Shown here one piece after another: positions 17,863 through 29,070 of a stretch of DNA of 40,893 nucleotides (positions are counted from its first letter, which is position 1; each line of letters starts with the position of its first letter). The position numbers and the translations under genes are program-made. The notes under the pieces were generated by a model. The model worked only from the letters and a program-made list of their open reading frames with translations. It was not told the DNA's origin and ran no database searches. The stretch is from a phage: sequence record PZ513996.1; one strand, written 5' to 3'.

Positions 17863-17887
17863 ATGGCGACTTTCAACGCAGCAGTAG
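17863..17887 (+). repeat. 25-nt duplicate (atggcgactttcaacgcagcagtag) of 18960..18984
   Basis: read directly; start of the 64-aa ORF equals the 3' end of the exonuclease gene. Confidence 0.85.
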
Positions 17888-18057
17888 AAGCAGTAATTGA
17901 ACTGTACTTCCAAGAGAACTTCGCAGAGATGGAAGACAAGCTGGCTGAGCTGTACAAGCAAGACCCTGCATTGTATAAGCAGGCGCAGGTACAGCTTGAA
18001 GACTTGATTGCAGAGCAGCACTATTTAGATGAAGGCGAGGAGTTGAACCTGTGGTAA
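17863..18057 (+). CDS. hypothetical acidic protein
   Basis: 64 aa; first 25 nt duplicated at the 3' end of the exonuclease gene (18960..18984), indicating a native overlap. Confidence 0.35.
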   Translation: MATFNAAVEAVIELYFQENFAEMEDKLAELYKQDPALYKQAQVQLEDLIAEQHYLDEGEELNLW

Positions 18058-18984
18058 ATGCTGATTAACTTTAAAGGCATTAACTTAGATGAGTTAGGCG
18101 CTCAGTTAGAGACGCCTGCTCCTTCAGATACTGTGCTGCTGCTTGATGCAGACCAAGCAGTGTACAAGGCAGCCAGTACAGTGAAGCGCTTAGATACAGC
18201 TATCCGGCGCTTCTATCAACTGGTTCTGGAAGATAAGTTCTACACGAACGCTAAGGAAGTACGCGCCTACATTACTCCTTCTGATAACTTTAAGTGCGGC
18301 AGGTTCCTCCTGCCTACCGTCAAGCCTTACCAAGGTCAGCGTGCAACTAGAGCAGAGATACCGCTGAAGGCGCCGCTTAAGGCACACCTCATAGCTAACC
18401 CGAATGAGTATGCTCAGCAAGGGATTGAGATTATCTTCGACTACCAGCAGGAGGCCGATGACCTTATCATTACCGATAGTATCCTGTTTGGTGAGCGTGG
18501 CTTAGTAAGCAGCTTCGATAAGGATATGAACCTCTGCCGAGGTCCTAAGTGGAACCCTGAGCTAGGTACTGTAGATGCGATTGATGATGCTTACGGCTGG
18601 ATTGAGTACGATAAATCCAGAGGTAAGGTAGTCGGTCATGGTTTAGCTTTCATGTTCGCCCAGATGCTAATGGGTGACGCTGCTGACCACGTTGCTGGAC
18701 TTACTAAGTACAAGGGAAAGAACATAGGCCCAGCTGGTGCGTATGAGTTCCTAGAGGATTGCAGTACGGAGAAGGGAGCGGCTAACAAAGTAGTCGCGGC
18801 CTACGCAGAGATTAACCAGAACTTCCTAGCTGAGATGGAATGCTTGTTCCTTCGTCGCAGTCCAGATGACTCGGCATTCAGTTATATACACCCCCTACTG
18901 GAGGGCGACCTCCAGAAATGGGCGGAAGCCTTGCATCAATACAACGAGGAATACAAGGCATGGCGACTTTCAACGCAGCAGTAG
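18058..18984 (+). CDS. 5'-3' exonuclease (T7 gp6-like, FEN family)
   Basis: 308 aa; N-terminal LLLDADQAVYKA and SFDKDMN (cf. T7 gp6 CDKDF) motifs. Confidence 0.75.
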   Translation: MLINFKGINLDELGAQLETPAPSDTVLLLDADQAVYKAASTVKRLDTAIRRFYQLVLEDKFYTNAKEVRAYITPSDNFKCGRFLLPTVKPYQGQRATRAEIPLKAPLKAHLIANPNEYAQQGIEIIFDYQQEADDLIITDSILFGERGLVSSFDKDMNLCRGPKWNPELGTVDAIDDAYGWIEYDKSRGKVVGHGLAFMFAQMLMGDAADHVAGLTKYKGKNIGPAGAYEFLEDCSTEKGAANKVVAAYAEINQNFLAEMECLFLRRSPDDSAFSYIHPLLEGDLQKWAEALHQYNEEYKAWRLSTQQ

Positions 18985-19506
18985 ATGAAGAAGGCAGCTA
19001 GCGACTACGGTATAGCTTGGGAAGATTACTTCCAATATGAGGACGGGCAGTTACTGTGGAAGGTAGCTGCTGCTCGACGGATAAAAGTTGGCACTGAAGC
19101 AGGTACGCCCAGCGGTTCTGAGGGTAGGTTATCTGTAGCACTGAAGGGTACCAATTGGTATGTTCACAGGATTGTATGGGAACTGCATAACGGCGCTATT
19201 CCTTTTAACCTAGAAGTAGCTCATGTGGACAGGGATGTTCTTAATAACAGAATTGAAAATCTTAGGTTAGTCACATGTGCAGAGAACCAGCGGAACAGAA
19301 GTATTCAGCGTAATAATAAATCTGGAATTGCAGGTGTAACCTGGGTGTCTAGGCTATGCAAGTGGCAGGTGTATATAAATGTAGAAGGGTCTCGTAAGCA
19401 CTTGGGGGTCTATCCGGAGCTATTAGAGGCAGTAGCCTGTCGTATGGCTGCATTAAGGGAATATGACTACTGCCTAAGTCACTGGAGATTAAAGTATGCT
19501 GATTAA
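18985..19506 (+). CDS. HNH homing endonuclease with AP2-like DNA-binding domain
   Basis: 173 aa; VHRIVWELHNG...AHVDRDVLNNRIENLRLVTCAENQRN HNH motif, then GVTWVSRLCKWQVYI AP2-like segment. Confidence 0.7.
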   Translation: MKKAASDYGIAWEDYFQYEDGQLLWKVAAARRIKVGTEAGTPSGSEGRLSVALKGTNWYVHRIVWELHNGAIPFNLEVAHVDRDVLNNRIENLRLVTCAENQRNRSIQRNNKSGIAGVTWVSRLCKWQVYINVEGSRKHLGVYPELLEAVACRMAALREYDYCLSHWRLKYAD

Positions 19507-19881
19507 ATGACTGATAAAGTACTTAACCATTACACTGAACTCTGCAACTCTGTGTCTGACTTTGTAGTTAGCCTGTACACCTCAGATGAAAGTCTGGGCG
19601 TATGTGATATTAAGGCTGCTCTCTGGGCAGTCGCTGAAGACTTTGGCATCACGGCTGATGAGGTCGTACAGGTCCTGAAGGATAACAACGACATTACAGC
19701 TCAGGCTGGTAAGCTGACTGGTGATGAGCTAGTGTATGTTCGTATCACTGGTAGCCTGTTCGCTCACGTAAGTAATATCGCCTCAATCATCTACGACATT
19801 GAGCAGGGTCTGCACGCAGTAGGTGCTATCAATGAGATGATTGGTACACTCTTAATCTTGGAAGAAATGGGCTACATCTGA
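19507..19881 (+). CDS. hypothetical protein
   Basis: 124 aa ORF. Confidence 0.3.
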   Translation: MTDKVLNHYTELCNSVSDFVVSLYTSDESLGVCDIKAALWAVAEDFGITADEVVQVLKDNNDITAQAGKLTGDELVYVRITGSLFAHVSNIASIIYDIEQGLHAVGAINEMIGTLLILEEMGYI

Positions 19882-20682
19882 ATGACTATCAATCTGAACG
19901 CACTGTCTTCCCTCGTTAACGAAACCGTAGCTACTCAGGGCATCGACCAGTCAGTAACACAGGCTGGCGGTAACTTCGCTGATGTACTGCTTCCGCGTGG
20001 TACTTACTTTGGTCGCTTCATGGAGTACATCGAGTTAGGTAAAAAGATTCCTATGCACATGGGTAAGCCGACTGGCAAGCCAGCAGTAATGAACGTGCGC
20101 TTAGGCTTCATCGTTTACACCCCTGATGGTTCTATCAAGCGTATTAATCCGTTCCCAATGGCCATTAGCAGCTTCGAGAAAGCTAAGTTTAAACAAGTCT
20201 TCGACAAGATGAACTATGACGGCACGCTGAAGCACATGGCACAACGTCTAGGCCAAGCGTTCATGTTTGAGGTTGAGCAGTACACCAGTAAGGCTGGTAA
20301 GACTTCTAACACCATCGACTTCCTGAGTCTGCGTACTCTACCTAAGTTTGACCCGCAGACTGGCGCTCCGGTAGAGCTGCCAGCATTGGACGAATCAGGT
20401 CTTCGTCTGTTCCTGTTTGATAACCCGACTAAAGAAACTTGGGATTCTCTGCATATTGAGAAGAACAATTTTCTGCAAGAAGATATTTTAAGCGCTGTTA
20501 ACTTCGAAGGCTCGGCTCTTCAGCAGATGCTAATGGGCGATGTTCCTGACATGGCGGCTATGGCTGCACCTGCTTCAGTATCTGCACCTGCTGCACCTGC
20601 TGCACCTGCTGCACCTGCTGCTCCAGTAGCTCCAGTAGCTCCAGCCGCACCTACATTCGCTGTTGTTCCTCCTGCACTTTAA
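19882..20682 (+). CDS. hypothetical protein with C-terminal Pro/Ala repeat
   Basis: 266 aa; C-terminus APASVSAPAAPAAPAAPAAPVAPVAPAAP low-complexity tail. Confidence 0.3.
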   Translation: MTINLNALSSLVNETVATQGIDQSVTQAGGNFADVLLPRGTYFGRFMEYIELGKKIPMHMGKPTGKPAVMNVRLGFIVYTPDGSIKRINPFPMAISSFEKAKFKQVFDKMNYDGTLKHMAQRLGQAFMFEVEQYTSKAGKTSNTIDFLSLRTLPKFDPQTGAPVELPALDESGLRLFLFDNPTKETWDSLHIEKNNFLQEDILSAVNFEGSALQQMLMGDVPDMAAMAAPASVSAPAAPAAPAAPAAPVAPVAPAAPTFAVVPPAL

Positions 20683-28014: not shown

Positions 28015-28551
28015 ATGACTTATGACAATATCTGTAATAAATACAAGTTGGAATCCTTGGAAGGCGCTGACCTGTGCGGCGCTGACCTGTGCGGCGCTGA
28101 CCTGCGCCGCGCTAACCTGCTCGACGCTGACCTGCGCGGCGCTGACCTGAGCGGCGCTGACCTGCGCTACGCTGACCTGAGCGACGCTGACCTGCGCGTC
28201 GCTGACCTGAGCGACGCTAAGCTGCGCGACGCTAACCTGATTGGCGCTAACCTGCGCGGCGCTGACCTGAGCGGCGCTGACCTGCGCGGCGCTGACCTGC
28301 GCTACGCTGACCTGAACATCGCTGACCTGAGCGGCGCTGACCTGAGCGGCGCTGACCTGCGCAGCGCTGACCTGCACGGCGCTAACCTGCGCGGCGCTAA
28401 CCTGCGCGGCGCTGACCTGAGCGGCGCTAACCTGCGCGACGCTAACCTGATTGGCGCTAACCTGCGCGGCGCTGACCTGCGCGGCGCTGACCTGACCGGC
28501 ACTGACCTGCGCGACGCTGACCTGCGCGTCGCTGATTGGGTTAGTATCTAA
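28015..28551 (+). CDS. pentapeptide-repeat protein (paralog of 21670..22251, repeat-only)
   Basis: 178 aa; ~32 A(D/N)L(R/S/C)x pentapeptides; N-terminus MTYDNICNKYKL similar to [12 protein letters not shown] of the other copy; no C-terminal domain. Confidence 0.85.
   Translation: MTYDNICNKYKLESLEGADLCGADLCGADLRRANLLDADLRGADLSGADLRYADLSDADLRVADLSDAKLRDANLIGANLRGADLSGADLRGADLRYADLNIADLSGADLSGADLRSADLHGANLRGANLRGADLSGANLRDANLIGANLRGADLRGADLTGTDLRDADLRVADWVSI
28060..28542 (+). repeat. coding tandem repeat array, 15-nt period, pentapeptide-repeat gene 2
   Basis: same unit as 21715..22021. Confidence 0.9.
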
Positions 28552-28728
28552 ATGATTAACCGGAACCCCGAAATGATTCTGATGCGTAATGATGAAGTAA
28601 CGATTGAGAAGCTGGCTCGTGAGCATGACGCTAAGGAAGCTCTTAAGTTAGCTTACAGTCTTAAAGCAGCTAAAGTAGGGATGACCCTTGAAGGGTATTG
28701 TGCACGTTTTAATATTAAAATTAACTGA
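28552..28728 (+). CDS. hypothetical small protein
   Basis: 58 aa ORF. Confidence 0.25.
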   Translation: MINRNPEMILMRNDEVTIEKLAREHDAKEALKLAYSLKAAKVGMTLEGYCARFNIKIN

Positions 28729-28742
28729 ATGATGGGCTTTAA
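28729..28742 (+). repeat. 14-nt duplicate (atgatgggctttaa) of 29057..29070
   Basis: read directly. Confidence 0.8.
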
Positions 28743-28893
28743 TAACTGGTTTAACTCTTATGTAAAGACATGCGCTCGGAAGGCGGCTACCGAAACTTAC
28801 CTTGCTGCGATTAAGAGAGGGCATTGCGAAGATTACGCTAAAATGCGAGCTCGTGAAGTATACATGTATTACTTACAGAGGAATTTAGAATGA
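28729..28893 (+). CDS. hypothetical small protein
   Basis: 54 aa; first 14 nt duplicated at 29057..29070. Confidence 0.25.
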   Translation: MMGFNNWFNSYVKTCARKAATETYLAAIKRGHCEDYAKMRAREVYMYYLQRNLE

Positions 28894-29070
28894 ATGGTCG
28901 GTCAAACTAGCCAGACAGTTGAGGTTGAGCGTCAACGTGAAGCTGAGATGTTCAAGCTTTTCGAATTCCTGACAGGCGGGGCAGCTAACGAAGCTAGCGC
29001 CTACCTTAATGAGAAACGTCAGCGTCAGCAAACTTACTTCTACAGAGGATTACAAAATGATGGGCTTTAA
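28894..29070 (+). CDS. hypothetical small protein
   Basis: 58 aa ORF. Confidence 0.25.
   Translation: MVGQTSQTVEVERQREAEMFKLFEFLTGGAANEASAYLNEKRQRQQTYFYRGLQNDGL

Follow-up and report, generated by a model that had tools for sequence, protein, structure and literature searches.

The question raised by this stretch of phage DNA (40,893 nucleotides, henceforth the window) is why short strings of bases at the boundaries of its open reading frames (ORFs) are present twice. A sequence-only reading had listed five such pairs and proposed that they mark native gene overlaps that were split, the ORF lying later in the window natively preceding and overlapping the earlier one, so that the gene order of the window would be reversed. 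Exact-match comparison reproduced all five pairs to the base, at the coordinates given below; one of them (1828/3324) lies outside the range to which the set had been ascribed (17863–29070). We conclude, with a probability of about 95%, that the window was strung together in silico from 59 gene calls, all of them taken from the GenBank-length record of Escherichia phage vB_EcoP_P64441, and that the repeats are artefacts of that construction.

The whole window (1–40893; all window features described here are on its plus strand) can be divided into 59 start-to-stop segments that share one reading frame and abut without a single intervening base. All of them are 100% identical to ORFs of vB_EcoP_P64441 (PQ847473.1; Autographivirales, Slopekvirinae), a phage whose genes are on the minus strand of its record, and the window is thus best described as the concatenated gene calls of this genome. 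Fifty-eight segments map to the minus strand of PQ847473.1 and one to the plus strand. The latter (seg31, 22441–22563) is the sole ORF that lies on the other strand of PQ847473.1, and it has been flipped to the common orientation. This spacer-free, single-frame tiling of 59 ORFs is absent from the two native relatives that we examined. The length of the window can also be balanced exactly, since 42,960 less 2,261 native intergenic bases (missing in 41 stretches), plus 188 duplicated and 6 added bases, gives 40,893; the 6 nt are an ATG and a TAA given to two genes that are cut by the ends of the PQ847473.1 record.

Tested against PQ847473.1, the 24-mers across the window junctions (e.g. TTGAACCTGTGGTAAATGCTGATTAACTTT) were native in none of 58 cases, while control 24-mers from the middle of the segments were native in 59 of 59. 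We found no phage record collinear with the window, the best match being broken into 16 pieces, and the phage name vB_EcoP_P64441 did not appear in the titles or abstracts of the literature matches. A scan of the IMG/VR viral contigs gave no match to a 30-mer from a window junction, nor to the matching native control string, i.e. the phage is absent from that collection and the lack of a match carries no information. The Shine-Dalgarno context is disrupted as well: of 57 starts, 44 have a Shine-Dalgarno-like motif upstream in their native setting, but only 15 do so in the window.

Every segment reads in its coding direction, and the segments follow ascending PQ847473.1 coordinates, which is the reverse of the order of transcription. 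This coordinate order holds within segments 04–51 and within segments 52–59, with a block of three ORFs (segments 01–03) out of place. Comparison with an independent relative, phage PAS7, gave the same picture: the order of segments 04–51 was almost perfectly inverted (Spearman rho = −0.98) with orientation kept, 38 of the 39 matched segments being on the plus strand of PAS7. The reversed order deduced earlier was therefore right for most of the window, but it describes the construction only in part, given that three ORFs have been displaced, the intergenic DNA has been removed and two codons have been added.

The five listed repeats turned out to be the longer members of a larger set. Neighbouring gene calls overlap natively at 19 places, and each of these overlaps is present twice in the window (1–44 nt, 188 nt in total); none of the 19 overlap lengths is a multiple of three. 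Those five are the duplications of at least 14 nt; 14 more, of 1–11 nt, follow the same rule, so that a count of five junction duplications is too low. A duplicate of 123 nt (see below) had also gone unlisted. Each of the five strings has two copies in the window and one in PQ847473.1, where it is located at a site at which the window-later ORF ends and the window-earlier ORF begins, just as had been predicted from the letters. Its native flanks are the bases upstream of the second window copy joined to those downstream of the first. In these native overlapping pairs the downstream gene starts before the upstream one has ended, with a Shine-Dalgarno-like motif inside the latter.

Some repetition is expected by chance in a sequence of this size, exact 14-nt matches in particular arising a few times in 41 kb. 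Shuffled sequences contained about 3.5 repeated 14-mers, 0.15 repeated 16-mers and no repeated 25-mers, and the window itself has about eight other exact matches of 14–15 nt, none of them at a segment boundary. Matches of this length do arise away from boundaries, and it is therefore the position at the boundary, and not the length alone, that is decisive, especially for the 14-nt pair. All five repeats start at the start of one segment and finish at the end of the next, the lengths of 16, 17, 25 and 44 nt are far beyond what shuffling produces, and the positional rule covers all 19 overlaps; the probability that the repeats are chance matches is practically nil. True biological duplications, such as target-site duplications, recombination scars or gene-shuffling junctions, can also be exact, short and located at gene boundaries. 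Yet the identical native genome has each string once, leaving no flanking pair around an insertion, the junctions of the window do not exist in it, and the repeat lengths (1–44 nt) coincide exactly with those of gene overlaps. Nor does either of the two native relatives examined lack its intergenic DNA altogether or tile in a single frame, and a biological origin is extremely improbable.

Concatenation of gene calls, on the other hand, would yield such repeats as a matter of course. Each call is written 5′ to 3′ in its own coding orientation and the calls are listed by ascending record coordinate. As nearly all the genes are on the minus strand, an ascending listing puts each gene directly before its native upstream neighbour. 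Where two genes on the same strand overlap, the start codon of the downstream gene lies inside the 3′ end of the upstream one, and the shared bases, being part of both gene sequences, are written twice. The first copy, which comes earlier in the window, opens the downstream gene, and the second closes the upstream one, in the next segment. The proposal that native overlaps had been split thus holds as a description of data handling, and no biological event was involved. The placement of the repeats at ORF termini agrees with this scheme as well, the first copy opening a segment and the second closing the next, with the exception of the first 5 nt of the longest pair.

The individual pairs differ in what they say about the underlying genes. 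In the second pair (25 nt), the first copy (17863–17887) is the 5′ end of a 64-aa ORF (seg23) and the second (18960–18984) closes the exonuclease gene (seg24) at its 3′ end, with the native GAGGAA ribosome-binding context kept upstream; the string is single-copy at 16693–16717 of the native record, and the annotation of PAS7 has an identical 25-nt overlap between exonuclease and ORF (15363–15387). The fourth pair (17 nt) joins the 5′ end of a 50-aa ORF (seg34, 24898–24914; native 24042–24058, single copy) and the 3′ end of a 53-aa ORF (seg35, 25196–25212), the native ribosome-binding site AAGGTGAGGTGA being just upstream of the second copy. The fifth (14 nt) consists of the 5′ end of a 54-aa ORF (seg42, 28729–28742; native 28200–28213, single copy) and the 3′ end of a 58-aa ORF (seg43, 29057–29070). 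In these three pairs both members are real genes, the downstream one starts within the 3′ end of its neighbour and the length is not a multiple of three, and all three also overlap in the GenBank annotation. The same can be said of the third pair, with a length of 8 or 44 nt depending on the start call, but not of the first.

The first pair (16 nt, ATGGCTCAGTTCCTGA) has its first copy (1828–1843; native 1370–1385, single copy) at the 5′ end of seg04, the N-terminal piece of a gp16-like gene, and its second (3324–3339) at the 3′ end of seg05 (3214–3339). The latter is a 41-aa ORF with a TTG start that is annotated neither in GenBank nor in PAS7. Compared with PAS7, the region has frame-breaking indels and a conserved TTGACG-N17-TATAAT, and judging from this pattern seg05 is probably not a gene but a promoter-like intergenic region. 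The claim that the five pairs are native gene overlaps consequently survives for pairs 2 to 5 and not for this one.

The third pair had been given as 49 nt (22559–22607 and 24849–24897), of which 44 nt are a real overlap: the C-terminal DNA polymerase ORF as called here (seg32) has them at its 5′ end (22564–22607), the N-terminal one (seg33) at its 3′ end (24854–24897). The extra 5 nt (AATGA, 22559–22563) are the tail of the opposite-strand ORF seg31 and match by chance. GenBank places the start of the seg32 gene 36 nt later, which reduces the overlap to only 8 nt (ATGGCTAA), and the PAS7 annotation also has 8 nt. Among the ORFs beside the repeats, a Pfam search recovered DNA_pol_A in seg32 (E = 6.7e-30) and gave no matches for seg23, seg24, seg33 or the two gp16-like pieces.

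This is the sole junction with possible biological content. In the clade of vB_EcoP_P64441 the DNA polymerase is encoded by two ORFs in different frames, while more distant relatives have a single ORF; in the close relative S.Kent 1-2-1 the gene is split further and contains an inserted HNH_3 ORF. Phage genes interrupted by HNH homing endonucleases are similar in that the polymerase gene is in pieces, but in P64441 there is no endonuclease gene between the pieces, which overlap by 8–44 nt. We considered a programmed ribosomal frameshift joining the two ORFs and regard it as unlikely, the frame of the C-terminal part being closed immediately before its ATG; inspection of the 44-nt overlap by eye revealed no canonical slippery heptamer. 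In S.Kent 1-2-1 the match to the C-terminal part begins about 180 nt past the end of the match to the N-terminal part and in another frame, and with such a gap and change of frame the polymerase pieces must start separately there. Read from these alignments, S.Kent 1-2-1 argues against a frameshift, with weaker bearing on P64441 and PAS7. That the N- and C-terminal parts (the latter in the +1 frame) are joined in the living phage by a programmed +1 frameshift, and are not two polypeptides of a split family-A polymerase, is in our view very unlikely.

A different, though related, origin applies to the 123-nt exact duplicate, whose copies are at the end of seg04 (3088–3210) and at the start of seg59 (38383–38505), right after an added ATG. 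The first 127 nt of PQ847473.1 are the same as its last 127 nt, an end redundancy of a circular record that splits one gp16-like gene and so generates the duplicate; PAS7 has a single intact gp16-like gene of 3771 nt spanning both pieces. The TAA at 3211–3213, absent from the native DNA, ends seg04, the piece truncated at the low end of the record, and this segment maps exactly only once its terminal 3 nt are trimmed (PQ847473.1 starts AGCTTAACCA). The ATG at 38380–38382, equally absent from the native DNA, opens seg59, the piece that enters from the high end.

Could the overlaps have been resolved on purpose? A refactored or decompressed synthetic phage, in which overlapping genes are pulled apart to make each of them separately manageable, would be a precedent, as removing overlaps from a genome demands that the shared bases be duplicated, as seen here, and the start and stop codons put on two incomplete genes are an editing step. 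In T7.1, the refactored bacteriophage T7 (Chan, Kosuri and Endy 2005; summarised in PMC4469412), overlaps between genetic elements were removed, gene order was kept, promoters, ribosome-binding sites and terminators became separate parts bracketed by restriction sites, and the phage was viable. The window resembles T7.1 in its resolved overlaps and duplicated shared bases, but it has no discrete regulatory parts: between its genes there is not one ribosome-binding site, promoter, terminator, spacer or restriction site, the Shine-Dalgarno context is gone with all the intergenic DNA, and the order is reversed. Moreover, the essential gp16-like gene stays incomplete, cut in two with its 123-nt duplication, and doubtful tiny ORFs and an opposite-strand ORF have been kept while the annotated holin and one other CDS were lost. 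Such a molecule would be unable to express its genes as the phage does, and a deliberate design of the T7.1 type is highly improbable.

The resemblance to a FASTA file of coding sequences or gene calls joined end to end is much closer. Such files consist of start-to-stop units with no intergenic DNA, contain the bases of an overlap once per gene, follow the order of record coordinates and include partial genes at contig ends. The window departs from a plain concatenation in the ATG and TAA that the partial genes have gained and in the three-ORF block moved to the front. A likely pipeline would be a gene caller able to report genes truncated by the contig ends, with its FASTA output joined afterwards. 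Compared with the GenBank annotation, 46 of the calls are identical, 4 have other starts and 7 are extra tiny ORFs, and the window lacks the annotated holin as well as one further annotated CDS; owing to these differences the comparison does not fix the exact gene-calling tool.

Same-strand gene overlaps couple translation in phages. The native state behind the window repeats is that of the same-strand overlaps of compact phages (ATGA, TAATG or longer), and in the living phage they presumably serve ordinary compact packing and translational coupling. In the window this coupling is destroyed, the two genes being separated and their order swapped. vB_EcoP_P64441 is a known deposited genome and its overlaps are of the ordinary compact-genome kind; the repeats themselves hold no new biology. 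Their importance is mainly one of quality control, as the window should not be taken as a natural genome, and findings drawn here from gene order, spacing, junctions, absent regulatory DNA or boundary repeats are effects of in-silico assembly.

Coordinate ordering leaves one feature to be explained, the block of segments 01–03 (1–1827; PQ847473.1 31562–33648), which comprises two tiny ORFs of the non-coding terminal region and the tail fibre gene. By record coordinate it belongs between window positions 31752 and 31753, i.e. between segments 51 and 52, but it has been moved to the front. In PAS7 the tailspike directly follows the endolysin. We considered whether rotating the circle, sorting lexicographically or reversing the whole order would put these three segments first, and none of them does; a further reordering step, beyond coordinate ordering, is needed to bring them to the front of the window.

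Read in one frame from base 1, the window is a run of 59 consecutive segments (seg01 to seg59), each extending from an ATG, GTG or TTG start to a stop with no spacer bases between them, and the same abutting pattern appears in its ORF list. Five pairs of repeats, exact at 1828..1843 = 3324..3339 (pair 1), 17863..17887 = 18960..18984 (pair 2), 22559..22607 = 24849..24897 (pair 3), 24898..24914 = 25196..25212 (pair 4) and 28729..28742 = 29057..29070 (pair 5), coincide with ORF termini as the sequence-only reading had reported: in all five the first copy opens a segment and the second closes the next one. 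This positional rule excludes chance matching as their source. Some eight unrelated exact 14–15-mers also occur in the window, in line with the ~3.5 repeated 14-mers of shuffled sequence, and none of them falls at a segment boundary; the 14-nt pair 5 is accordingly significant by its exact boundary placement and not by length alone. This inventory of exact repeats covers the window outside an Ala-Pro repeat and a pair of pentapeptide-repeat genes. The latter (21670–22251 and 28015–28551) are paralogs, ~85% identical over ~300 nt with 15-nt periodic arrays, from which most exact repeats of the window stem, and are unrelated to the junction duplications.

Megablast of positions 17000–30000 against phage records led to Escherichia phage vB_EcoP_P64441 (PQ847473.1, 42,960 bp; Autographivirales, Autoscriptoviridae, Slopekvirinae), with the match broken into 16 separate pieces; no phage record was collinear with this query. 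Mapped one by one, each of the 59 segments matches PQ847473.1 at 100% identity, 58 on its minus strand, which carries all its annotated genes, and a single one, seg31 (22441–22563), on the plus strand. Apart from the displaced seg01–03, segments follow ascending record coordinate, every one turned to its coding orientation, so that in the window each gene stands directly before its native upstream neighbour. An independent relative, phage PAS7 (OQ921331.1, ~80% identity), has its genes on the plus strand, to which 38 of 39 matching segments align (the exception being seg31), and the rank of segments in the window falls as their PAS7 coordinate rises (Spearman rho = −0.98, segments 04–51). Both comparisons bear out the reversed gene order that had been proposed from the repeats.

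The junctions themselves do not exist in the native genome: 0 of 58 junction 24-mers could be found there on either strand, against 59 of 59 mid-segment 24-mers used as control. Nineteen neighbouring pairs of gene calls overlap in the native record, by 1, 4, 7, 8, 10, 11, 14, 16, 17, 25 or 44 nt (no multiple of 3), and in all 19 the shared bases both open the downstream gene's segment (5′ end) and close the next one (3′ end), whose gene natively lies upstream. Those overlaps that reach at least 14 nt make up the five reported pairs. That they are split native overlaps, as had been suggested, is supported by each string having two copies in the window and one in PQ847473.1, where its flanks are the bases upstream of copy 2 and downstream of copy 1; being single-copy in the native genome, they are excluded as real biological duplications. 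The lengths balance exactly: 42,960 nt of record, less 2,261 intergenic nt missing from the window (41 stretches, and with them the regulatory signals between genes), plus 188 nt covered twice (the sum of the 19 overlaps) and 6 nt of added ATG and TAA, give 40,893.

We therefore consider it very likely (about 95%) that the repeats are a product of data processing, in which the gene-call sequences of a minus-strand record were joined in coordinate order. Such joining would reverse transcription order, remove all intergenic DNA and write the overlap bases twice. A deliberately refactored genome in the style of T7.1, the design goals of which are summarised in PMC4469412, would share with the window the duplicated overlaps and nothing else; regulatory parts, gene order and the intactness of genes all speak against it. 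Of 57 starts, 44 have a Shine-Dalgarno-like motif ahead of them in the native context, and only 15 do in the window. The duplications are thus a construction artefact of the window, without novelty, and other findings from positions 1–40893 need to be read in the light of its abutting-ORF make-up.

PQ847473.1 was assembled as a circle and has the same 127 nt at its start and at its end. Its arbitrary cut divides a gp16-like gene for an internal virion protein, undivided in PAS7 (one CDS of 3771 nt), into two partial calls: seg04, running off the low end at position 3, and seg59, entering at the high end (position 42958). The added codons, absent from native DNA, are here, TAA (3211–3213) ending seg04 and ATG (38380–38382) starting seg59. 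A further exact repeat of 123 nt (3088–3210 = 38383–38505) is the stretch of end redundancy common to both pieces. Two CDSs named 'peptidoglycan lytic exotransglycosylase' are annotated in the record in place of the one PAS7 gene, so that the deposited sequence seems to retain an assembly overlap that was never trimmed. Seg01–03 (window 1–1827, record 31562–33648), comprising the tail fibre gene and two tiny ORFs of the non-coding terminal region, stand at the window front, while their record coordinate would place them after seg51 and before seg52; no simple rule, be it sorting or rotation, accounts for this. In PAS7 the endolysin is directly followed by the tailspike.

The overlaps of pairs 2 (25 nt), 4 (17 nt) and 5 (14 nt) are also present in the GenBank annotation, that of pair 2 being annotated identically in PAS7. 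In the living phage the native overlaps are ordinary same-strand start-in-stop overlaps of a compact genome, and the ribosome-binding site lies within the upstream gene. Same-strand overlaps of this kind couple translation, as they would be expected to do here. Pair 3 stands as a 44-nt overlap and not at its full length, its extra 5 nt (AATGA) being the end of the flipped opposite-strand seg31, a match by chance. Even the 44 nt hinge on the longest-ORF start; with the start of GenBank and PAS7, ATGGCTAA, the overlap is 8 nt.

Pair 3 joins the two ORFs, in different frames, of a family-A DNA polymerase (22564–24897): seg33, the N-part, and seg32, the C-part, which matches Pfam DNA_pol_A. Fused into one query, the two parts align without a break to KP34, SDFMU_Pec, KKP 3828 and many others, relatives with no more than 61% identity having the polymerase in one ORF, and in two or three pieces within the closest clade (P64441, PAS7, S.Kent 1-2-1, ECO104 4-5-2). 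In S.Kent 1-2-1 the C-part match starts ~180 nt past the end of the N-part match, and an ORF for an HNH_3 endonuclease breaks up the C-part. This arrangement, with the pattern of pieces in the clade, makes a programmed frameshift joining the ORFs unlikely; the split agrees with the 'genes in pieces' pattern that is known to go with homing endonucleases. Two HNH endonuclease genes (Pfam HNH_3) lie among the replication genes, one adjoining the exonuclease (18985–19506) and the other upstream of the split polymerase (25213–25638).

Compared with the GenBank annotation, 46 of the window gene calls are identical, 4 share the stop with another start and 7 are extra tiny ORFs; the CDS at record 7756–7950 is wholly missing. 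Seg53 (32308–32454) is a 48-aa ORF in another frame within the annotated holin (record 34190–34438), whose length equals that of a PAS7 ORF and whose use instead would give two more junction duplications, of 17 and 23 nt. Pair 1 (16 nt) hinges on seg05 (3214–3339; record 1370–1495, minus strand), a 41-aa TTG ORF annotated in neither PQ847473.1 nor PAS7, to which it aligns with indels of 1, 8 and 1 nt. Probably no gene, seg05 looks like an intergenic region bearing a putative promoter, because it holds a sigma-70-like TTGACG-N17-TATAAT, perfectly conserved in PAS7 and nested in the inverted repeats AAAGGGTTT...AAACCCTT and ATCATG...CATGAT; this nested element, nearly identical in PAS7, shortly precedes the gp16-like gene. 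A second, diverged copy of it is found on the plus strand of the native genome (21104–21132), upstream of seg31, the only opposite-strand ORF.
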